The translations under genes and the position numbers were made by a program. Of a stretch of 64,000 bases of DNA, positions 1 to 10,508 are shown in pieces. Origin of the DNA: Gammaproteobacteria bacterium (GTDB taxonomy: Bacteria > Pseudomonadota > Gammaproteobacteria > Poriferisulfidales > Poriferisulfidaceae); the NCBI GenBank assembly GCA_026713705.1, contig JAPONY010000059.1, forward strand, positions 55,670 through 119,669, given 5' to 3'. The notes under the pieces are model-generated. The model worked only from the letters and a program-made list of their open reading frames with translations, did not search any database and was not told the origin of the DNA. Position 1 is the first letter of the stretch; the number at the start of each line of letters is the position of its first letter.

Positions 1-267
1 GTGCACGTCTTCAAGGCTTGCATCCCACTCGGCTTCGCCGGAATCGATGCGCGCGCGCACCTGCGCCAGACCCTTGACGAGGGTCTCGCATTCTTCCTCG
101 CTGAGCACGCCTGCCCGGTGCAACCCACGGGCATGCGCCTGCGACCCCTGGATGTCATAGGGGTACAGGCGGCCGTCGAAATGGACGGACGCGGTAAACG
201 TCTCCACCTGGCTGTCGGTCGCCCGAGCGAACCGTCCAGCCCAGGGTTTCGCTGTAGATTGAGGCAT
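1..267 (-). CDS. argH: Argininosuccinate lyase, N-terminal part; the gene continues beyond the window start
   Basis: Minus-strand translation from ATG at 267 reads MPQSTAKPWAGRFARATDSQVETFTASVHFDGRLYPYDIQGSQAHARGLHRAGVLSEEECETLVKGLAQVRARIDSGEAEWDASLEDVH, which matches the conserved ArgH N-terminus (WGGRF...DI.GS.AH...L.DVH). It is GC-rich and host-like. The plus-strand ORF 1..309 in the track is its antisense. Confidence 0.8.
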   Translation of the reverse strand, partial: MPQSTAKPWAGRFARATDSQVETFTASVHFDGRLYPYDIQGSQAHARGLHRAGVLSEEECETLVKGLAQVRARIDSGEAEWDASLEDVH

Positions 268-375
268 GTGACCCTCACGAATTTAGAGGTATTTTACGGC
301 AGCACATGATTTATCGCTGACAATGGGCCTGCCGTTTCGCGACTCGGTAGGCTAAGTATCGGGATTTCTGCCTTC

Positions 376-639
376 TTAATCGCCCTCGTCAAGTCCAAGG
401 ACTTGACGACTGAATTTTGAATCATTGCATTCCTCAGGCCATCTTTCCCTGTTTCCCGAAACCCCAAGGTGTTTTCGGACCGATTCTAGTTTTTCGAAGT
501 CGATTCCTCCTCGACCTTGCCGACACACGAGTTCGGCGACTGGTTCCCCATTTTCTAGAATAACGACCCGCTCACCGCTCTTCACAATCTCGACCAGTTC
601 AGAAAGGCGCGTTTTCGCTTCGTGAATAGGAAGCTCCAT
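376..639 (-). CDS. Phd/YefM (prevent-host-death) family antitoxin-like protein
   Basis: 87 aa. The N-terminus MELPIHEAKTRLSELVEIVKSGERVVILENGEPVAELV is the classic Phd/YefM-VapB antitoxin fold signature. It lies 5 bp downstream of the 344-aa gene on the same strand. No PIN/VapC or RelE-type toxin follows it. Confidence 0.7.
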   Translation of the reverse strand: MELPIHEAKTRLSELVEIVKSGERVVILENGEPVAELVCRQGRGGIDFEKLESVRKHLGVSGNRERWPEECNDSKFSRQVLGLDEGD

Positions 640-643
640 TCCC

Positions 644-1678
644 TTACCCGTCCAACATTTCTGTTGCTGCTTCGGTTACTTTCTCTCCCGACGGCCTTTT
701 CCCGAATTCTACAAAATTGACTCCCTGATCTTGGCTACTTTCGTACTCCACCAGACCAGTCGGTACACTACCGAAGACAGTTTTTGTGGCAGCCATCAAA
801 ACAGCATCTCGGACATAAGGGTCATCTGCCGCCTTCACAAATGCCTGAAAGGTTTTAAGGCTCAAAGCACGATGCTTATTCACTGTCGCTTGATGAATTA
901 GTGCGCGATAGATACGCCCACACCAGATTGTCCCTGTGAAGAGAACAGCAATAATTGCTACTTTACTAGCAACGTTGCGGAGGGTTTCCCAACCATCGGC
1001 CTTTGGTGAAACTTCGGGCCAAAAATAGGACCCAATCGCCGCACCTATAGTTAGAGCCGCAAATACAGCCGTAGCAATCAGCCAATTTTTTGACCGTGCG
1101 CCGAGTGTCGATGCTTCATCACGAAACTCTTCCGTGAATGTAGCTACCCCCGTACTCGCTGCTGCTGCGCGAGCAGCTTTTATGATTTCTTCTATTTCAC
1201 TATTTTTGTCGTCAGCCGATTTTTTTGCTTCCTCAAGAATTTTTCCTGCATCAGCAACCGCTTGGTTTAATTTCGTTATATTGTCCGTAGCATCGCCACG
1301 CCTATAGGCGAGGTATGGAATAGAAGAACCTGCAACAGCATAAAGAGCTTCGACCTGTGCGTGGAGGTTTTGAGAGAGATTGTCTCGCCTACTGACCGGG
1401 TCTCCTCCTTCAAGCGAGAATTGATCGATTTCTGCTAATCCGCCAACTACTCCAGGAACGTAATCAATTATCTGTTGCGCGGTAGTATCCGTTAGGTATT
1501 GAAGCGGTAGGTCTAAAAGATCTGTAGCCACGGATAGAGCTAAGTCGATATCTGCCCGTGCTTCTTCGAAGTTAATTGAACCCCATTTATCCTTACGGCT
1601 AACTAGGTCAATGTCTGTATATGCCGCTAATGATTGAAGCTCCCCTTTAAGGCTATCGATTAAGTGCTGCGTTGCCAT
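644..1678 (-). CDS. Two-transmembrane-helix protein of unknown function with a soluble N-terminal domain; possible membrane-acting toxin or abortive-infection effector
   Basis: 344 aa. Two predicted hydrophobic helices (NWLIATAVFAALTIGAAIGSYFW and VAIIAVLFTGTIWCGRIY) sit in the C-terminal half. An AAGGAA SD lies 9 nt upstream of ATG 1678. GC is low. It is co-directional and nearly contiguous with the Phd-like gene. Confidence 0.6.
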   Translation of the reverse strand: MATQHLIDSLKGELQSLAAYTDIDLVSRKDKWGSINFEEARADIDLALSVATDLLDLPLQYLTDTTAQQIIDYVPGVVGGLAEIDQFSLEGGDPVSRRDNLSQNLHAQVEALYAVAGSSIPYLAYRRGDATDNITKLNQAVADAGKILEEAKKSADDKNSEIEEIIKAARAAAASTGVATFTEEFRDEASTLGARSKNWLIATAVFAALTIGAAIGSYFWPEVSPKADGWETLRNVASKVAIIAVLFTGTIWCGRIYRALIHQATVNKHRALSLKTFQAFVKAADDPYVRDAVLMAATKTVFGSVPTGLVEYESSQDQGVNFVEFGKRPSGEKVTEAATEMLDG

Positions 1679-1692
1679 ATTCCCAGTTCCTT

Positions 1693-1870
1693 ATAGATTA
1701 AACCTGACTGAACTATCAGCGTCGTCATTTCCAACCCTTTCATAGATGCCGTCTAACACCCTGTCCATGGAATCTGCCTCAGCAATCATGCCATTCTTCA
1801 GGGCGAGTACGGCATAGCCAGAGCTCTTTGTTCCGGTGAAGTACATCGCATGCATTCCATCCATGCCCAC
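1693..1870 (-). CDS. Small ORF (59 aa with GTG start, 57 aa from ATG 1864) leading the minus-strand operon
   Basis: My own translation: (V)GMDGMHAMYFTGTKSSGYAVLALKNGMIAEADSMDRVLDGIYERVGNDDADSSVRFNL. AGGAG lies 9 nt upstream of GTG 1870. The TAA stop is 14 nt before the 344-aa gene start. It is just under the 60-aa cutoff, so it is absent from the ORF track. Confidence 0.3.
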
Positions 1871-2002
1871 ATCCAGATACTCCTAGTGAGTATGCATTGT
1901 AACTCACAGTCTTTAGACTTTGAAATTTAACGAAAATTATCGTAAATACAATGGATTACGTGGTCGTCATGAGGATACGCTAGGATACACTCTAAATCGT
2001 TC

Positions 2003-2029
2003 TCTGCGGGTGTCTCGGCAACCCGCAGA
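2003..2029. promoter_or_regulatory. Perfect 9-bp inverted repeat TCTGCGGGT-N9-ACCCGCAGA in the divergent promoter region of the island operons
   Basis: Read directly from the sequence. It lies about 60 bp upstream of the methyltransferase ATG (2089). No T-run follows on either strand, so it is more likely an operator or RNA structure than an intrinsic terminator. Confidence 0.3.
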
Positions 2030-2088
2030 ATAAACGAATTAACAAGGTTCACTCATACCCATACTCAAAAATTGCTGACATCATCCCA

Positions 2089-5000
2089 ATGCCTACTCGC
2101 CAGACCTCGGAATCCCGAGAAAAATTCAATCAGCTGAAAGCCCTACTGAGGGAAATGTTCCAACTTGACCGGGGCGACCTTGACTTCGGCCTGTACCGGA
2201 TCATGAACATGATGGCGGACAAGATCACGAAGTTCCTTGATAATGACTTGTTGCCTCAAGTCAAGACGATATTGGCCGGGGTCTCTGATGAGGACAGAGC
2301 CGATCTAGAAAAACATGTTGAAGACGCGAGAGCGATGGCCAAATCTCTGGGAATCAACCCGGACGATGCGCCGAAAGTGATTGAATTGGAACGGCAGTTG
2401 GCCGAAGCAAAAACAGATGCGGAAGCCGAGGCGGATGTCTATGGTTACTTGGCTAACTTTTTCTCCCGATACTACAGTGAAGGCGATTTCATGTCGCTGC
2501 GCCGCTACTCTGGAGGGGGCGACTCGGCCTATCATATTCCCTATGACGGGGAAGAGGTGAAACTGCACTGGGCCAATGCGGATCAATACTACATCAAGAC
2601 GGCGGAAAATTACGCCTCCTACGCTTTTACGCTCCAAAAGAACCGGCATGTCAAGTTTGAAACTGTAGCGGCCGATAGCAAGAAAGACAACATCAAGGAA
2701 ACTAGCGGCAGACAACGTCGCTTCGTGTTGGTGCCCGGGAAAGGTGCCATTGTGCATGCAGACGAGACACTGATAGTTCGCTTTGAGCATCGCCCGCTAA
2801 CGGATAGCGAAAAGAAGAAATTCCCTGGAAATGGGGACGGCCAACAAAACCGGATCAACCAAGCGACAACAGAGCGCATCTTGCAAAACCTAAATCCGGA
2901 TTGGCGAGCTTGTCTTTCTGAACTTGAGCCAACTGGAGCCAATAGCAAACGCACGAAACTCGAAAAGCACGTTGAACGCTACACAGCGAAAAATAGCTTT
3001 GACTACTTCATCCACAAGGACCTAGGTGGTTTCCTGCGCCGCGAGATGGATTTCTATCTGAAAAGCGATGTGTTCAACCTGAACGACATCAATGCCAGCA
3101 ATATGGTTCAATTACGCCGTGCGCAGTTGCGAGTGCGTGCGACTCGTGAAATGGGCGAGAAAATCATCTCCTTTCTTGAGCAGTTAGAAAATTTCCAGAA
3201 GAAACTCTGGCTCAAGAAGAAATTCGTACTGGACACGCATTGGTGCGCCACCCTCGACCACGTGCCAGAAACCTTCTACGCCGAAATAGCAGCCAATGAA
3301 AGGCAAGTTGAAGAATGGAAAGAACTGTTTGCGATTAACGAAATTGACGGTAGCCTTTCCAATGACGGCACGGGATATTCCGACCCACTAACCATCGGAT
3401 TTCTCAAGGCCAACCCGTATTTAATACTGGATACGAGACATTTTGACCGTGACTTCACAGACCGCCTACTAGCAACCTTGTCCGAAATTGGTCCATTGGA
3501 TGCGAAGACTGATGGAGTATTTGTCCATGGAGAGAATTTTCAAGCACTAAACCTTTTAAAGAAACGATACCACAGCCAAGTGGAATGCGTCTACATTGAT
3601 CCTCCCTACAATACAGGCGACTCAGAAATCTTGTATAAAAATGGGTACCTTAAATCCTCGTGGCTGACTCTGATGGCCAATCGGCTGGCTCTTCTCCCTG
3701 AAATATTAACTCAAGACCTTGTTCTCTATATCGCAATTGACGATTTTGAAATGGTCGACCTTGCAAAACTTCTAGATGAAGAATATCCCTCATTACGACG
3801 CGAGACAATTATTGTTAATCACCACCCACAAGGGGGGAAAGCTCAAACCTTAGCGCATACACATGAATACATGCTCGCATGCGTACCCACATCGTCAAGT
3901 AGAACACTTGTAGGAAGAACAGGCCACCGTGACGAAGAACAACGGCCGTTTAGAAGAAGCGGAACTGCCGAAAGTAACTTTCGTTACGCGCGGCCGAACA
4001 GTTTCTACGCAATTCTAGTAGACCCCTCTTCCCGTCAAGTTGTAGGTTTGGAACCGCCACCAATAAAACATGAGTATCCGACAGAACCGACTGACAAAAA
4101 TCTCGTCAGAATTTATCCTATTGGCGCACAAGGAGAGGAGCGGGTGTGGAGAAAGTCTTATAAATCATGCCAAGCACTCGTCGACGGTAACAAATTGTGC
4201 TGTTCCAAAAGCAATACAATTTATCAGAGGATTAATGCTGATGAGCGGAAAACTGCACTATTTAGCAACTGGACAGATTCCCGATATAACGCAGGCACAT
4301 TTGGCGCTAATTTGCTAAGCGACATCACTGGTGCACCCAATCAATTTTCCTATCCCAAATCAATTCATACTGTCGAAGACGCAATCTTCGCAGCCAACCT
4401 TAATGCGGACGCATATATATTGGATTATTTTGCTGGCTCCGGTACAACTGGCCATGCAATTATTAATCTAAATCGAGAAAATAACACTCATTACAAATAC
4501 CTAATGGTCGAGATGGCCGATCATTTCGATGCAGTGCTATTGCCACGTATCAAGAAAATCATTTATTCGCCAGGCTGGGAAGGCGGCAAACCAGCCTCCC
4601 GCGACGAAGGCATCTCGCAACTCTTCAAATACATCCGTCTCGAATCATACGAAGACACACTGGACGGCCTCGTATGGAAACCAAAGGAAAGTGATTTGTT
4701 CGCTGATAATCCTGCGCTGTCCGAAGACTATCAGCTGCGTTACTCGCTCAATGTAGAAACTCAAAACAGCACCAACCTGCTGGGCATGGATTGTCTCAAT
4801 CCATTTGCCTGTACCATTTCCACCGTACGCGATGGAGTGCGCCAAGATGTGCCCGTAGACCTGCCAGAAACTTTCAACCATCTTATTGGTCTGCATGTTC
4901 ACTCTTACCAGAAAATTGATGATGTTCTCTCTATTACTGGTACAGACAGCCAGAAACGAAATTGTCTGATTCTTTGGCGCAATCTCGAAAAAACAGACAA

Positions 5001-5184
5001 TGCCAAACTGGAAAAATGGTTCGATCTCAACCGGAAGCTCTTCCCTGACTCACTTGCTCTTGTCTACGTCAATGGCGACCACACTCTGAATGCGATTCGA
5101 GGAAAGAAAGACATCTGGACTGCGAAAACCATTGAACCCGTCTTTCGAGCCTTGATGTTCGAGGATTGCTCGTATGGCAAATAA
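2089..5184 (+). CDS. Large beta-class N6-adenine (or N4-cytosine) DNA methyltransferase: a Type III Mod-like C-terminal region (aa about 470–1031) fused to an uncharacterised N-terminal domain of about 470 aa
   Basis: 1031 aa. Motif IV DPPY lies at aa 504–507, preceded by the GENFQALNLLKKRY lead-in typical of the N6_N4 methyltransferase family. Motif I FAGSGTT lies at aa 781–787, after a stretch of about 270 aa that is presumably the target-recognition domain (TRD). This is the beta-class order IV...TRD...I. The N-terminal 470 aa (EKFNQLKALLREMFQLDRGDLDFGLYRIMN; YGYLANFFSRYYSEGDF...PYDGEEVK) matches nothing I can assign. GC is low. It overlaps the next gene by 11 nt. Confidence 0.85.
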   Translation: MPTRQTSESREKFNQLKALLREMFQLDRGDLDFGLYRIMNMMADKITKFLDNDLLPQVKTILAGVSDEDRADLEKHVEDARAMAKSLGINPDDAPKVIELERQLAEAKTDAEAEADVYGYLANFFSRYYSEGDFMSLRRYSGGGDSAYHIPYDGEEVKLHWANADQYYIKTAENYASYAFTLQKNRHVKFETVAADSKKDNIKETSGRQRRFVLVPGKGAIVHADETLIVRFEHRPLTDSEKKKFPGNGDGQQNRINQATTERILQNLNPDWRACLSELEPTGANSKRTKLEKHVERYTAKNSFDYFIHKDLGGFLRREMDFYLKSDVFNLNDINASNMVQLRRAQLRVRATREMGEKIISFLEQLENFQKKLWLKKKFVLDTHWCATLDHVPETFYAEIAANERQVEEWKELFAINEIDGSLSNDGTGYSDPLTIGFLKANPYLILDTRHFDRDFTDRLLATLSEIGPLDAKTDGVFVHGENFQALNLLKKRYHSQVECVYIDPPYNTGDSEILYKNGYLKSSWLTLMANRLALLPEILTQDLVLYIAIDDFEMVDLAKLLDEEYPSLRRETIIVNHHPQGGKAQTLAHTHEYMLACVPTSSSRTLVGRTGHRDEEQRPFRRSGTAESNFRYARPNSFYAILVDPSSRQVVGLEPPPIKHEYPTEPTDKNLVRIYPIGAQGEERVWRKSYKSCQALVDGNKLCCSKSNTIYQRINADERKTALFSNWTDSRYNAGTFGANLLSDITGAPNQFSYPKSIHTVEDAIFAANLNADAYILDYFAGSGTTGHAIINLNRENNTHYKYLMVEMADHFDAVLLPRIKKIIYSPGWEGGKPASRDEGISQLFKYIRLESYEDTLDGLVWKPKESDLFADNPALSEDYQLRYSLNVETQNSTNLLGMDCLNPFACTISTVRDGVRQDVPVDLPETFNHLIGLHVHSYQKIDDVLSITGTDSQKRNCLILWRNLEKTDNAKLEKWFDLNRKLFPDSLALVYVNGDHTLNAIRGKKDIWTAKTIEPVFRALMFEDCSYGK

Positions 5185-6064
5185 TCCTCCGAATCTTTCA
5201 TTCTCTCAACGCTACGGTCATGAGCCTCTGCCGGAGCCAATGCAACTGGAACATCTATCAAAAGACCTAAGGAGAGAAATCTGGAATGCCGTTCGGGATG
5301 GTCTGAAAGAAATCCGTTATTCTTCTATTGAATACACCGTTGATGCAAATGAACCGCCCTCAAGATTTTTTGCCCGTACCCTAGGCACTCTTGAAAAAAT
5401 CCCGGAAGATGAAGTACCTAGTCAAGATGGGCTGGTTCTCCAGCAATTCAAGTCAATAGTGATGCACCGTGATTTCAATATCGTATTAGACTTGATTGAA
5501 AGATTACTGAACAGTGATTTTCCTACTGCAGCACTTCGCTCCCGCATACCGGCTTTGTTTGAGAAACATGCTGCAGCATACCGGCTTGATATGTCTCAGC
5601 AACCGTATTGGTTTTATCCACAGGGCAACAGGGAGCAAGGAGAAGCAATACAGCAATCCATTGAAACAATTCATCAGAACAATATGGACGGTGCTACTAC
5701 ACACTTGCGTCAAGCTGTTGAACACATCAATGCGCAGCAATATGCAGACTCAATTACTGACAGCATCCATGCTGTCGAATCTGTAGCACGTCAGATCGCT
5801 CCTAAAGCAAATACTCTAGGTACGGCACTTAACTTTCTTATAAAAGAAGGATCATTAATGAATCCAGTACTTAAAAAAGCATTTGAAAAACTCTATGGAT
5901 ATACAAACAGTGAACAAGGTGTTCGACATGCTCTTTTGGACCAGGGTTCTCCTAATGTTGGCTTGGATGAGGCTGTTTTTATGTACGGGGCATGTGCGTC
6001 CTTTGCCGCATACCTGACCAGAAAATACCAGCAAGTAGCACAGCAAGGGACCGACGGCCGATGA
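5174..6064 (+). CDS. HEPN-domain protein, AbiJ-like (N-terminal AbiJ-NTD-like region plus C-terminal HEPN with Rx4HxN), embedded between mod-like and res-like genes
   Basis: 296 aa. The N-terminus MANNPPNLSFSQRYGHEPLPEPMQLEHLSKDLRREIWNAV resembles the N-terminal domains that accompany AbiJ-type HEPN proteins. The candidate HEPN motif is R179-QAVE-H184-I-N186 (TTHLRQAVEHINAQQY), followed by LYGYTNSEQGVRHALL. The start overlaps the upstream stop by 11 nt, and the stop overlaps the downstream ATG (ATGA), so it is translationally coupled on both sides. Confidence 0.55.
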   Translation: MANNPPNLSFSQRYGHEPLPEPMQLEHLSKDLRREIWNAVRDGLKEIRYSSIEYTVDANEPPSRFFARTLGTLEKIPEDEVPSQDGLVLQQFKSIVMHRDFNIVLDLIERLLNSDFPTAALRSRIPALFEKHAAAYRLDMSQQPYWFYPQGNREQGEAIQQSIETIHQNNMDGATTHLRQAVEHINAQQYADSITDSIHAVESVARQIAPKANTLGTALNFLIKEGSLMNPVLKKAFEKLYGYTNSEQGVRHALLDQGSPNVGLDEAVFMYGACASFAAYLTRKYQQVAQQGTDGR

Positions 6065-9000
6065 GGGGCCGACGGTCAGCACCCCTCCTCCAGGACCGTC
6101 TTGTCCTGCTCCGCTTCATGTGCCAGGAATTTGGCTATGCCGACATGGACGCGATGCTTGACCGCCTGCGCGATGCGCTGCCCGTATTCACAGCAAGAAG
6201 AGAAAGCGAATATGCCCGCGCCCTGTACCTGCACCCCGATAACGCAAGCATCAGCGCAGAAACTTTCACTGAATATGACGCAAATATCGCCATGTACAGC
6301 CAGCGCCTGCACATGACGGAAGAACGTGGTCGGTCATGGAAGCCCCATCAATATCTCGCGCTACTGTTCACCGAACACTACCTGAATCGCTATTTCAGTG
6401 ATCCCCAAGCGCTATGCGCTGGCCTGAATGCGACGAAAACCGCGAACCCGATGACCCGCAGCATGCCCGATTGCACCCCAAGGGATCTGCATACCGTCGC
6501 TCTCCAAAGCGCAACAGGCTCCGGCAAAACGCTGATCATGCATGCATCGATCCTGCAATACCAGCATTGGCTCAACCGCTCAGGCCAACGACTCAACAAC
6601 GTCATCCTTGTGACGCCGAACGAACACATGTCCAAACAACACAATCGGGATTTGCAGGAAAGCAATATCTCCGCACGGCTTTTCTCCAATGAGGCGGGCC
6701 CCGACTTATTCGCTTCCGTAGAGATCATTGATCTCAACAAGCTGGCAGAAAAAAGAGGGATCAAGCGTGTCGCGGTGCGGGATTTCGGCGAAAACAATCT
6801 GGTCCTAGTCGATGAGGGACACCTTGGGGCATCTGGAAAGGCATGGCGAGAACGCCGCGAGGAACTGGCACGGGGCGGATTTACTTTCGAGTATTCTGCA
6901 ACCTTCAATCAAATCACGGGCAAAGACCCTGCCCTGCGGGATGTCTACGGAAAATGCCTGCTGTTCGATTACGCTTACCGGGAGTTTTATAAGGACGGTT
7001 ACGGAAAGGACTACTCTATTTCGAACCTGCCAAGGGGAGCGGAAGACGAAAACAGCCGCATGTACCTGCTTGGGTGCCTGCTCACCTTTTACCTGCAATG
7101 TTGTATTTGGAGAGACAGGGATATCGAATGGGTTGATTTCAATTTGGCAAAACCGCTATGGGTGTTCCTCGGAAAAACCGTGACTGGAAGCAGCAAAGCA
7201 GATAGGGAGACCAAATCGGACGTTATCAATATCCTAGATTTTTTTGGTTGGCTGTTAGCGAATAAAAAGGATGTATGCGCCATGTTTAAACGTCTGCTGG
7301 CCAACGATTCAGGAATCACCAACGAACTAGACGAAGATTTCTTCGCTGACAGATTTGCCAGATTCAAATCGAGCCGGCCAAATGACCTCTACGCCGATAT
7401 TTGCGAAACCCTGTTTCACGGAGAAGGACAATTGCATGTCGTCTACATCACTGGCGGAGACGGTGAATTTCACTTACGCGCTGCTGACCATTCTCCCTTT
7501 GGCGTCGTCAACATCGGAGATTCGGCTGCCCTCCACAAAATACTGAAAGAAAAAGCTAACCCGGATTTTCGTGTGGAGCGGGAACTCGGCTTTGCAAAAG
7601 TGTTATTCCCGACGGTTGACCAGCCGGATTCAAAAGTGAACATCGTAATCGGTGCGCGCCGCTTTATTGCAGGATGGAACTGCTGGCGAGTCAGCACCAT
7701 GAGCCTAATGCATGTGGGTGTAGGAGAGGGACCAGAAATCATCCAGATGTTCGGAAGAGGAGTCCGCTTGAAAGGCTGGAACATGAGTTTGAAACGTCAT
7801 CAGAAAAGTGGTGCCAAACTACCGCAAGGCAGCGAGGAGCTGGCTGAATTGGAAACCCTGCATATCTTTGGATTGCGTGCGAACTACATGCAAATCTTCC
7901 GAGACCTGCTGGAAAAGGAGAGGATCGCACTGGAGCACATCAAACTCCCTGTGACGTGGAATTTCGCAAAAACGACCGACCTGAAATTCATCCGGCTCAA
8001 AAAGGGCCAAAAATACATGGGATCGGGAGAACGATTGACCTTGCCACTCCCCAACGCAGGCAATCCCACCGTGAAACTAGATTTGTATTCTCGGCTGCAA
8101 TCCGTAGCATCCAGCAAATCCACCGCCATCGAAAGAGAAAAGGTTCAATTCAAATTCACTCCGTGTCACACCTCCCTATTCAACAGGACTCGCATCTATG
8201 ACTCCCTGATAGCGCACAAGCGCCAAATGGGTTGGCACAATTTGGCCCTTCATGCTGAAACCATAGATGAACTACTAGCCAACGACACATGGTACGAACT
8301 TCAGGCCCCTCCCGAAAAAACCGATATGCAAAATTTTAAGGATGTGCAGGCATTAGAGGATGTGGCCATTGATCTTCTTGCCAAATATGCGGATCAACAT
8401 TGGCGAAAACAGCGAAGAAAGTGGGAGCATGAAAACATCGAGGTGGTGACGCTGGGTGAAAACGACCCGAACAACATCAAGGAACATCGGTTGTCGCTGG
8501 ATGCAAAAGAGGAAAGGCTAGTCGAGGATATTCGTTCACTCAGAACGAATCTCAACCACCCTCTTCCTAGAGACCTGAGGCTCATCGTCATCAGAACCAA
8601 GGTTCACGCCTATGAACCTCTCCTGTACGCGAGCAAGGACTGCAAGGTCACGGTCCAGCCCGTTCCCCTGAATCAAGGCGAAAAAAGCGTCGTAGAAAAA
8701 CTGGAGTCATTAGCCCGATACAACGATGGCTGCCTGCGAGGCCGAGACCTTTTCCTGATTCGCAACCGGACGCACGGCAGAGGCGTTTCTTTTTTTGATG
8801 ACTGCGGCTATTACCCGGACTTCATCGTCTGGTTGAAGAACGATAACAGCCAGCATGTAATCTTTCTTGATCCGAAAGGACTTGGCTACTATGGTCAGGA
8901 AAAACGCAAAAAAGTGGAATTACATGCTGAAATCAAGGAGGTCGAAAAGCGAGTGCGTAATGACGATCAAACCCTGCGCTTACACGCTTATGTCCTATCG

Positions 9001-9129
9001 GTCACTGCTCCGGAAAAGATTAGCGAACAACGCACGAAGCAGGAATGGAAAGAAGATGGCGTTTATTTTCTGCAAGACCCAGATTGCCTGAAACAAATTA
9101 TTACGGATGTGCTTGGGCCAACATCTTGA
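6061..9129 (+). CDS. Type III restriction Res-like protein: SF2 helicase (DEGH box) with a C-terminal PD-DxK endonuclease domain and an extra N-terminal region of about 150 aa
   Basis: 1022 aa from ATG 6061 (ATGA overlap with the upstream stop). The track's start at 5992 is an upstream in-frame extension. Walker A is LQSATGSGKT (K156). Motif II is LVLVDEGH (aa 250–253). Motif VI is QMFGRGVRLKGW. A C-terminal nuclease core is YYPDFIVWLKNDNSQHVIFLDPKG (PD...D-x-K). The arrangement is the same as EcoP15I-type Res but with a longer N-terminus. GC is low. Confidence 0.85.
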   Translation: MRGRRSAPLLQDRLVLLRFMCQEFGYADMDAMLDRLRDALPVFTARRESEYARALYLHPDNASISAETFTEYDANIAMYSQRLHMTEERGRSWKPHQYLALLFTEHYLNRYFSDPQALCAGLNATKTANPMTRSMPDCTPRDLHTVALQSATGSGKTLIMHASILQYQHWLNRSGQRLNNVILVTPNEHMSKQHNRDLQESNISARLFSNEAGPDLFASVEIIDLNKLAEKRGIKRVAVRDFGENNLVLVDEGHLGASGKAWRERREELARGGFTFEYSATFNQITGKDPALRDVYGKCLLFDYAYREFYKDGYGKDYSISNLPRGAEDENSRMYLLGCLLTFYLQCCIWRDRDIEWVDFNLAKPLWVFLGKTVTGSSKADRETKSDVINILDFFGWLLANKKDVCAMFKRLLANDSGITNELDEDFFADRFARFKSSRPNDLYADICETLFHGEGQLHVVYITGGDGEFHLRAADHSPFGVVNIGDSAALHKILKEKANPDFRVERELGFAKVLFPTVDQPDSKVNIVIGARRFIAGWNCWRVSTMSLMHVGVGEGPEIIQMFGRGVRLKGWNMSLKRHQKSGAKLPQGSEELAELETLHIFGLRANYMQIFRDLLEKERIALEHIKLPVTWNFAKTTDLKFIRLKKGQKYMGSGERLTLPLPNAGNPTVKLDLYSRLQSVASSKSTAIEREKVQFKFTPCHTSLFNRTRIYDSLIAHKRQMGWHNLALHAETIDELLANDTWYELQAPPEKTDMQNFKDVQALEDVAIDLLAKYADQHWRKQRRKWEHENIEVVTLGENDPNNIKEHRLSLDAKEERLVEDIRSLRTNLNHPLPRDLRLIVIRTKVHAYEPLLYASKDCKVTVQPVPLNQGEKSVVEKLESLARYNDGCLRGRDLFLIRNRTHGRGVSFFDDCGYYPDFIVWLKNDNSQHVIFLDPKGLGYYGQEKRKKVELHAEIKEVEKRVRNDDQTLRLHAYVLSVTAPEKISEQRTKQEWKEDGVYFLQDPDCLKQIITDVLGPTS

Positions 9130-9156
9130 CTAGCCACTTCGAGTAGGCCAAGCCTA

Positions 9157-9582
9157 ATGCCGCAATCCATGAAAAAAACCGATTCTCCGACATCCTTTGA
9201 GGACAAGGTTGCCGTGCTGATTGACGGCGGTCTGGAACTGTATTGGGATCGAACCGTCACCATGACTCCGGCCCAACGCGAAGCGGTTGCGCGGCTGGAA
9301 GAGAAGTTCCTGGAGGGGTTTAATGTGGACGGCGTGCGCTACGATCGCCCGGACTCGCTCAAGCGGGCTCAGTTGGCCGCAAGCCTGATCCCCCAGGCGC
9401 TGCAACGCGGGGATGATTCGCTGGCCGCCACTGCTCTGGCGCTGACCTGCACCTCCCTGCCCGACCTGAAACAGATCCAATATCGCCGACGGCAAGACGG
9501 GAGCTGGGATATCGCATTCGTCAGCGACCGTTTCTATGCACCTGACGAGCGGCCTGTCCAATTGATGCCACGCACTCCATGA
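9157..9582 (+). CDS. Hypothetical protein upstream of hemC; the true start is possibly internal (MTPAQREAV at about 9262)
   Basis: 141-aa ORF whose stop overlaps the hemC ATG (ATGA). GC rises to the host level only after about 9260. The opposite-strand ORF 9154..9561 looks less protein-like. Confidence 0.4.
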   Translation: MPQSMKKTDSPTSFEDKVAVLIDGGLELYWDRTVTMTPAQREAVARLEEKFLEGFNVDGVRYDRPDSLKRAQLAASLIPQALQRGDDSLAATALALTCTSLPDLKQIQYRRRQDGSWDIAFVSDRFYAPDERPVQLMPRTP

Positions 9583-10508
9583 GCAAATCTCTCTGCCGCA
9601 TTGCCACCCGCCGCAGCCCGCTCGCGGTCCGGCAGGCCGAACTGGTGGCCGAGGCGCTGGTCCAAGCGCAGGGCCTGAGCACGGAACTGCTGCGCGTGCA
9701 GACCGAGGGTGACCAGGTACTGGATCACCCCTTGGCCGAAATCGGTGGCAAGGGCCTGTTCGTCAAGGAACTCGAACTTCGCCTGCTGGCAGGCGACGCC
9801 GATCTTGCGGTTCATTCGATGAAGGATGTGCCGGCGGACCTCCCGGCCGGCCTCACGTTGGGCGCAATCTGCACCCGCGCCGACCCCCGGGACGGCGTCA
9901 TCGCCCCCCGCCACAAGACGCTTGACGCGCTCCCTGCAGGCAGCCGTGTCGGAACATCCAGCCTGCGGCGCAAGGCACAGTTGCAGGCACGGTTCCCGGA
10001 TCTTCAATTCCTGGATCTGCGCGGCAATGTCGGAACCCGCCTGAAACGGCTGCAAGATGGAGATTTCGAAGCCATTGTGCTGGCCTGTGCAGGCCTGCAG
10101 CGTCTAGACCTGGACGGGCAGATCACCCAGATCCTGGAGCCCGAAGAGTGCCTGCCCGCCATCGGCCAGGGCGCACTCGGCATCGAGATCGCCGAAGACC
10201 ATCCGCACGCTCGCGCCTGGGTGGCCGCATTGCACGACGACGCCACCGCCGCTGCCGTGACCGCGGAGCGCATGGTCAGCCGTGCGTTGTCCGGCAGCTG
10301 CCAGATTCCCCTGGCGGCCCATGCGGTCTGTACCGGCCTCCGAGAAGTCCGCCTGCAAGCCTGCCTCGCGCGCCCGAACGGCAGCCTGATCCTGCGTGCG
10401 GAAGCCGAGGGAGACCCCAAGATTGCCGGTGCGCTGGCCGCAAAACAACTGCTGGAACAAGGCGGTGCGGATATCCTGGCCGAACTGGGGGTCGAAGGCT
10501 ACGCATGA
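9579..10508 (+). CDS. hemC: Hydroxymethylbilane synthase (porphobilinogen deaminase)
   Basis: 309 aa. RIATRRSPLAVRQAELV...EGDQVLDHPLAEIGGKGLFVKELE is the canonical HemC sequence. Confidence 0.95.
   Translation: MSKSLCRIATRRSPLAVRQAELVAEALVQAQGLSTELLRVQTEGDQVLDHPLAEIGGKGLFVKELELRLLAGDADLAVHSMKDVPADLPAGLTLGAICTRADPRDGVIAPRHKTLDALPAGSRVGTSSLRRKAQLQARFPDLQFLDLRGNVGTRLKRLQDGDFEAIVLACAGLQRLDLDGQITQILEPEECLPAIGQGALGIEIAEDHPHARAWVAALHDDATAAAVTAERMVSRALSGSCQIPLAAHAVCTGLREVRLQACLARPNGSLILRAEAEGDPKIAGALAAKQLLEQGGADILAELGVEGYA

Follow-up and report, generated by a model that had tools for sequence, protein, structure and literature searches.

Within a 64,000-nt stretch of a gammaproteobacterial contig (JAPONY010000059.1; hereafter the window, in which all positions are numbered), we analyzed an open reading frame (ORF), here termed gene X, that lies between the methyltransferase gene (mod) and the restriction gene (res) of a Type III-like restriction-modification (RM) operon. 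We consider it rather probable that X is a self-contained sensor-effector abortive-infection RNase of the AbiJ-NTD4/PDC-S32 type, carried and co-expressed as embedded cargo and forming a second line of defence behind restriction. This interpretation would follow proposals made by Anantharaman et al. (2013) and Payne et al. (2024).

Restriction would act as the first line. The NTD4 domain of X, presumed to be a sensor or assembly domain, would keep the protein latent and either sense infection or drive assembly, while the HEPN domain would be a metal-independent RNase. Should a phage escape or block restriction, X would be activated and would cleave cellular or phage RNA, stopping the infection with loss of the cell. 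Control would probably be intrinsic, through NTD4 and not from Mod or Res, and the embedding would give X co-regulation and linked horizontal transfer.

Gene order and junctions

The ORF list places three ORFs on one strand, mod at 2089-5184, X at 5174-6064 and res ending at 9129, with these features:

2089..5184, + strand: mod, Type III-like DNA methyltransferase, 1031 aa, with a long N-terminal extension
5161..5165, + strand: GAGGA, Shine-Dalgarno-like, within the mod 3' end, 8 nt 5' of the X start
5174..6064, + strand: gene X, 296 aa, AbiJ_NTD4 plus HEPN protein, PADLOC candidate PDC-S32
5174..5184, + strand: mod/X junction ATGGCAAATAA, X start and mod stop TAA (5182-5184), 11-nt overlap
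6061..6064, + strand: X/res junction ATGA, X stop (TGA) overlapping the res ATG by 4 nt
6061..9129, + strand: res, Type III-like restriction subunit, 1022 aa, with an SF2 helicase and a C-terminal PD-(D/E)XK-like motif (YPDF...LDPK)

The X ORF opens at the first start codon past the upstream in-frame stop, and strings resembling GGAGG or GAGGAG occur at the place matching its Shine-Dalgarno-like GAGGA in homologous loci. The res ORF is listed from 5992 and has an in-frame ATG at 6061; in the organism's other assemblies, gene callers start res at this ATG and obtain a 1022-aa protein. Alignments of homologous res proteins also begin there, and homologous res genes have their start at the same ATGA. 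Since the reading of the sequence, the res gene calls and the alignment of res homologues agree, we regard the coordinates of X and both overlaps as correct, confirming what an earlier inspection of this DNA (the original prediction) had reported.

Among 32 homologous mod-X-res loci, mod and X overlap by 1, 4, 8, 11 or 14 nt in ~20, and X and res overlap in the ATGA/GTGA manner (by 4 or 1 nt) in ~20. The overlapping start and stop codons permit translational coupling of X with mod and with res; the stoichiometric co-expression that had been proposed is not implied by them. A scan of the operon for internal promoters and terminators gave signals not above shuffled expectation, and because no such signal was found, mod, X and res look like a single transcription unit.

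That overlapping junctions are kept on both sides over ~20 loci from several phyla favors another explanation, a PrrC-like guard, in which X would be bound and inactive in a Mod/Res complex until an anti-restriction protein frees the RNase, the whole being one integrated system. It draws further strength from the transfer of the cassette as a unit (below) and from the precedent of PrrC/EcoprrI (PMC3710099), and is weakened by the lack in X of the ABC-ATPase regulatory domain of PrrC. Taking this together with the evidence from other loci given below, we hold the guard to be unlikely, if quite conceivable.

The host operon has the composition of a Type III RM system, a mod gene followed by a res gene with helicase and PD-(D/E)XK nuclease parts. 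Mod matches Pfam N6_N4_Mtase (E 9.7e-19) and PADLOC MTase_III (PDLC03646, E 8.4e-224), and Res matches Pfam ResIII (E 2.8e-8) and PADLOC REase_III (PDLC03654, E 2.3e-152). Three Res residues of the D...D-x-K nuclease motif, which was identified by eye, are invariant in the res alignment (A3): D920, D937 and K939. Windowed identity among mod homologues falls to 24-40% over residues 521-760 (window 3649-4368), compared with 50-80% elsewhere; this segment is probably the target-recognition part, and its low identity fits a swapped or diverged target-recognition domain, as would be anticipated where working RM systems diverge in their targets.

Domains, fold and family of X

5198..5590, + strand: AbiJ_NTD4 domain, residues 9-139, a helical bundle followed by a beta-hairpin (136-149)
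5630..6055, + strand: HEPN-fold domain, residues ~153-294

X matches the Pfam family AbiJ_NTD4 (PF18863) over residues 9-139 with E 2.7e-11 and 44.6 bits (cutoff 34), as do all 41 aligned X homologues, and so carries at its N-terminus one of the domains NTD1-5 that mark AbiJ-family proteins. Structural comparison of NTD4 gave weak but consistent matches to death-fold domains (PYD/CARD/DD). Over nearly its full length (residues 8-286 on profile positions 7-282 of 285), X matches the PADLOC PDC-S32 model PDLC04997 (E 6e-54); a second PDC-S32 model, PDLC04996, also matches (E 1.5e-44). The family is large, with 1478 X homologues, and a profile search with the C-terminal domain (E <= 1e-3) recovered 3746 cluster representatives at 50% identity.

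The C-terminal half of X is covered by no Pfam family. It has the four-helix up-and-down bundle of HEPN domains, helices 2 and 3 being separated by an insert; Foldseek against the PDB gave HEPN matches that were weak only (E > 1), and a profile search of PDB sequences with the X-family alignment (A1) gave nothing relevant. Membership in Abi_C (PF14355), the Pfam model of AbiJ HEPN domains, was rejected, as neither the model nor its R-polar-x3-5-H motif is matched; Abi_C is absent from the top 25 families matched (E <= 1) by the 41 X homologues, and likewise gave no match up to E = 10 for protein P0096, which carries a precomputed hit. The assignment of X to an AbiJ-type family in the original prediction therefore stands on the significant AbiJ_NTD4 match; Abi_C is matched neither by X nor by its distant homologues.

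Conserved residues and predicted active site

5708..5725, + strand: RQAVEH (R179-H184), the proposed Rx4H, in HEPN helix 1, adjoining the conserved H177
5777..5791, + strand: E202-S-V-A-R206, Ex3[KR] motif of HEPN helix 2 (190-208)
5894..5929, + strand: Y241-G-Y-T-N-S-E-Q-G-V-R251-H252, predicted active site in the loop after helix 3

Conservation was counted in 123 cluster representatives (50% identity clusters from the C-terminal-domain profile search). Conservation within the X family peaks in the LYGYTNSEQGVRHALL block, with R251 present in 121, H252 in 122, G249 in 119, Y241 in 117 and Y243 in 114 of the 123; outside it, H177 is kept in 113. HEPN domains have a second acidic residue in helix 2, typically within an Ex3[KR] motif (PMC3710099), and X has it as well: E202 is kept in 120/123, and position 206 is R or K in 110/123. 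E202, R251 and H252 are retained even in plasmid homologues at 26-27% identity.

The HEPN Rx4H motif had originally been placed at RQAVEHIN. This string lies in helix 1 instead of at the helix-3 end, just 71/123 representatives keep R179 and just 45/123 keep H184, and both are missing from the distant AbiJ-NTD4 homologues on plasmids, so R179x4H184 was rejected as the catalytic motif on position and poor conservation. On the same two grounds we take the LYGYTNSEQGVRHALL block to be the real site and RQAVEHIN to be incidental. The canonical Rx4-6H of HEPN domains, at the end of helix 3 or in the loop that follows, is missing from X: residues E, D or S/N occupy positions H-5 to H-7, with S or N where the canonical Arg would be, and the Arg of X sits instead at H-1, in the adjacent pair R251-H252. 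From this pattern of residues, the predicted active site is a non-canonical adjacent Arg-His that replaces Rx4-6H.

The missing Rx4-6H raises the question of whether X is an enzyme at all. It may have lost HEPN RNase activity and become an accessory subunit that binds nucleotide or DNA and regulates or scaffolds the restriction enzyme; some HEPN domains are indeed non-catalytic binding modules (PMC3710099), and the weak death-fold-like matches of NTD4 hint at a role in assembly. The near-invariance of E202, R251 and H252 over thousands of diverse relatives is, however, the pattern of an active site, and most related mod-res operons work with no gene in this position (see below). We find such a non-catalytic role extremely doubtful.

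Genomic contexts of X homologues

A pattern scan with one genome per species yielded 79 X loci, almost all in metagenome-assembled genomes (MAGs). As judged by tblastn with the window mod and res, 32-33 of these have the order mod-X-res, and two further such loci from metagenomes bring the total to 35/81. They are distributed over Acidobacteriota, Latescibacterota, Nitrospirota, Binatia, and Alpha- and Gammaproteobacteria, so that comparative genomics bears out the suggestion that the family recurrently sits between mod and res. X is embedded in other systems too: in five or six Dehalococcoidia loci it follows hsdS through an ATGA overlap, hsdR lying farther on (Type I RM), and in four loci it lies between HmaA and HmaB of Hma systems. 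It thus recurs on the same strand between the genes of one system. Other copies are beside AAA_21 ATPases, helix-turn-helix (HTH) genes or housekeeping genes.

The genomes with close X homologues (L001-L081) are nearly all uncultured MAGs. Several of their lineage names (Poribacteria, Poriferihabitaceae, Binatia, Latescibacterota, Nitrospirales) hint at sponge or coral symbionts, a hint taken from the names only.

About 31 X loci have no RM partner, ~40% of the close homologues lack this RM system, and the plasmid homologues are free-standing and without RM in 3/3 cases whose neighbourhoods were read. Together with four loci in which an intact X has nothing but mod/res remnants beside it (next section but one), these loci weaken the proposal that Mod and Res are the necessary control partner of X. 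They also tell against the guard, as many intact copies have no RM neighbour, and so does the embedding of the family in three unrelated systems (Type III-like, Type I and Hma) that share no common partner.

The cassette in the window lies on an island of distinct composition:

640..9150, no strand: low-GC island with the cassette, 44-55% GC versus 61-66% in the DNA of the flanking hem (hemC) operon

In other assemblies of the same organism, the cassette is found between an argininosuccinate-lyase-like gene and hemC. Since the composition of X is the same as that of mod, we conclude that mod, X and res arrived together. Across at least five phyla, the mod proteins are 50-62% identical and the res proteins 54-64% identical. 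With the GC contrast (44-50% on the island, 61-66% in the flanks), this shows horizontal spread of the cassette of three genes between uncultured bacteria that are only distantly related.

In a neighbour-joining tree of X, Type III-embedded and free copies are intermixed, with Type I and Hma copies placed in groups at the base. The view that X is no recently inserted passenger holds within its own clade, where it is an integrated, co-transferred part of the operon; over longer evolution X behaves as exchangeable cargo, as seen from the intermixing in the tree and from the unrelated genes that occupy the same slot.

A gene for a small HTH_31 protein (~168 aa) recurs, preceding mod where the operon is complete and immediately preceding X where RM is missing (L001, L004, L005, L010, L012, L019, L021, L030, L043, L046, L047, L049, L050, L052 and L058). 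This protein may be a controller of the cassette.

The mod-res junction as a cargo slot

A res-anchored scan of metagenomes (loci L082-L159) gave 80 loci, 68 of which have an upstream mod with its C-terminus present. In 39 of these 68 related loci mod and res are adjacent, the point raised above against an accessory subunit, and 26 of the 68 hold a same-strand insert of > 400 nt between the two genes. The inserts encode SoFic/Fic (5), DUF3800 (6), DUF1016/YhcG PD-(D/E)XK (3) and PLD (3) proteins, as well as UvrD, AAA_21/ABC ATPases and Schlafen-AlbA2+HATPase_c_4; several have no Pfam match. The Fic insert matches PADLOC SoFic with E 6e-109. Because the inserts are so varied, we view the mod-res junction of this RM family as a general cargo slot.

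X is carried by only two of the res-anchored loci, those with res > 60% identical, and is apparently a cargo fixed in one res subclade. That both res-anchored metagenome loci of this close subclade carry X is a further point for the guard.

Some loci have additional genes between X and res: two toxin-like genes, one for a second HEPN protein (DUF4145 family) and one for a PemK/MazF toxin, a gene for a GMT-wHTH protein, and two genes without a Pfam match. These lie at:

L030, 9196-10191, - strand
L067, 9211-9552, + strand
L008, 9275-10870, + strand
L018, 8943-11502, + strand

Remnants of mod and res beside intact X

L005, 7900-7977 and 8855-9088: mod 3' and res 5' remnants
L011, 4342-4652: mod 3' remnant
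L027, 6102-6143: mod 3' remnant
L049, 7940-7972: mod 3' remnant
L052, 7924-7968: mod 3' remnant
L004, 7696-7980, + strand: Res-N::Mod-C mini-ORF, 94 aa, directly upstream of X
L062, 7732-7971, + strand: Res-N::Mod-C mini-ORF, 79 aa, directly upstream of X

Five loci (L005, L011, L027, L049 and L052) have an intact, free-standing X immediately preceded by 11-35 codons from the 3' end of mod, and L005 additionally holds ~80 codons of the res 5' end downstream of X. Remnants of this kind around an intact gene indicate that many of the free copies descend from embedded ones. They also show X outlasting the loss of RM, which disfavors Mod or Res as an obligatory antitoxin.

The same loci bear on the idea that X is an addiction or stabilization module, a toxin-like gene that mainly keeps the RM cassette or itself in the genome rather than defending against phage. 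HEPN domains are frequent as toxins of toxin-antitoxin systems (PMC3710099), further toxin genes (PemK/MazF, Fic) are found in the same slot, and the cassette is on a horizontally acquired island. Against this, the remnants beside intact X imply that RM can vanish while X stays, and the search for an antitoxin gave no candidate. For a HEPN-MNT pair, there is no MNT antitoxin gene, the neighbours of X being mod and res with no small ORF between, nor is there a small upstream ORF in the window; for a type III toxin-antitoxin system (AbiF/AbiV/ToxIN-like), there are no tandem repeats near X that could mark a repeat RNA, and no Rfam match in 1-9700. Toxin-antitoxin readings were rejected on these grounds, and we judge the addiction module to be very improbable.

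Loci L004 and L062 have no mod or res apart from this mini-ORF, which joins the Res N-terminus (~8-75) in frame to the Mod C-terminus (~994-1031) and overlaps the X start by 4 nt. The fusion point is identical in the two loci (YD[AT]N|GDHTLNA), and their mini-ORFs are 68% identical, compared with 44% for their X proteins. The resulting order, res5'::mod3'-X, cannot be derived from mod-X-res by a simple internal deletion.

This retention could mean that the two segments matter to X, in favor of the guard; the retained mod 3' remnants may, on the other hand, simply carry the ribosome-binding site of X. Because both segments persist as a fused mini-ORF overlapping the X start in two divergent RM-less loci, one can picture X as wired to the restriction enzyme and docked on, or controlled through, the N-terminus of Res and the C-terminus of Mod; NTD4, with its weak but consistent death-fold matches, might then drive higher-order assembly of the adjacent-Arg-His HEPN RNase. 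We think this decidedly unlikely. If true, the operon would be a Type III-RM guard whose mechanism differs from that of PrrC.

Weighing the evidence

Several points weigh against X as a self-contained abortive-infection RNase. Since Rx4-6H is absent and the Arg is at H-1, the catalytic mechanism of X may differ, and the active-site loop (243-252) is modelled at low predicted local distance difference test (pLDDT) scores. Abi_C gives no match up to E = 10 for X or for its plasmid homologues. The X loci were sampled with two peptide patterns and lean towards close relatives. The RNase activity, the toxicity and the defence function of X are all things that we infer, and the tight, conserved coupling of X and its apparent fixation in a res subclade are compatible with direct functional wiring to Mod and Res as well.

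Current views are not overturned by this locus, the pattern of a defence gene within a defence system being known already. What it offers is a clean and phylogenetically broad case of a candidate RNase effector fixed in a Type III-like restriction operon, extending the published pattern of embedded defence to an RM class previously unmined. The mod-res cargo slot, occupied in 26/68 loci, could be mined for new defence genes, and the X family, with its thousands of clusters and its non-canonical HEPN motif, is a reasonable target for biochemistry.

Other genes of the island

Beside the RM cassette, at 644-1678 on the - strand, the island has a gene whose 344-aa product matches no family and is hydrophobic in its C-terminal half. 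No homologue of it is found beside X in any other locus, which puts it outside the conserved cassette. Just downstream is an 87-aa ORF (376-639, - strand) with an N-terminal match to the Phd/YefM antitoxin family (E 6.5e-9); gene calls for this locus in other assemblies do not include it.

Comparison with known systems

The PDC models derive from genes found nested, in the same orientation, within BREX, DISARM or Type I RM systems (Payne et al. 2024, 10.1101/2024.01.29.577857). X matches PDC-S32, a single-gene candidate, over its full length and is found within Hma and Type I RM systems as well; its dominant host differs, being the Type III-like mod-res pair. PDC-S32 is not mentioned by name in the accessible portions of the text and tables of that embedding paper, and a literature search found no experimental work on PDC-S32 or the NTD4 clade.

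At least 16 HEPN clades are found in conserved neighbourhoods with RM systems (Anantharaman et al. 2013, PMC3710099). That study defines AbiJ-NTD4 (prototype CBY_0614) and places some AbiJ proteins in RM operons; the RM association is given there for AbiJ 'solos', whereas here it is the NTD4-fused form that is embedded. Its supplementary file contains no AbiJ alignment.

With the AbiJ/Abi_C proteins (Lactococcus lactis AbiJ and Staphylococcus aureus SadR), X shares an AbiJ-type N-terminus and a C-terminal HEPN domain in one polypeptide of similar size. SadR, an Abi_C protein, is a proven single-stranded RNA RNase whose HEPN motif is needed for phage defence (PMC13590631). Its R-N-E-Y-G-D-A-H can be lined up by eye with x-[DN]-E-x-G-x-x-H of X; X differs in being unmatched by Pfam Abi_C, in having S or N in place of the canonical Arg and in having its invariant Arg directly before the His. 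NTD4 was found in just 3/2815 Abi_C proteins surveyed (PMC13590631), and this rarity suggests that the NTD4 clade has a distinct version of the HEPN domain.

PrrC, an anticodon nuclease of the HEPN superfamily encoded in the Type Ic EcoprrI hsdMSR operon, is likewise nested in an RM operon, and has been proposed as the model of how defence is backed up once restriction has been neutralized (PMC3710099). PrrC has its own ABC-ATPase N-domain, belongs to a Type I system, and owes its latency to EcoprrI binding, which was shown experimentally. X has AbiJ_NTD4 at its N-terminus instead, is hosted mostly by Type III-like operons, and has many free-standing copies, which, being intact, speak against an obligate latency through an RM complex.

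HEPN genes in RM operons, the AbiJ-NTD4 architecture and the PrrC analogy had thus been published in 2013, and the embedding principle and the PDC candidates in 2024. New here are the Type III-like host, the conserved double overlap, the cassette that crosses phyla, the occupancy of the mod-res slot, and the adjacent Arg-His motif of the predicted active site.

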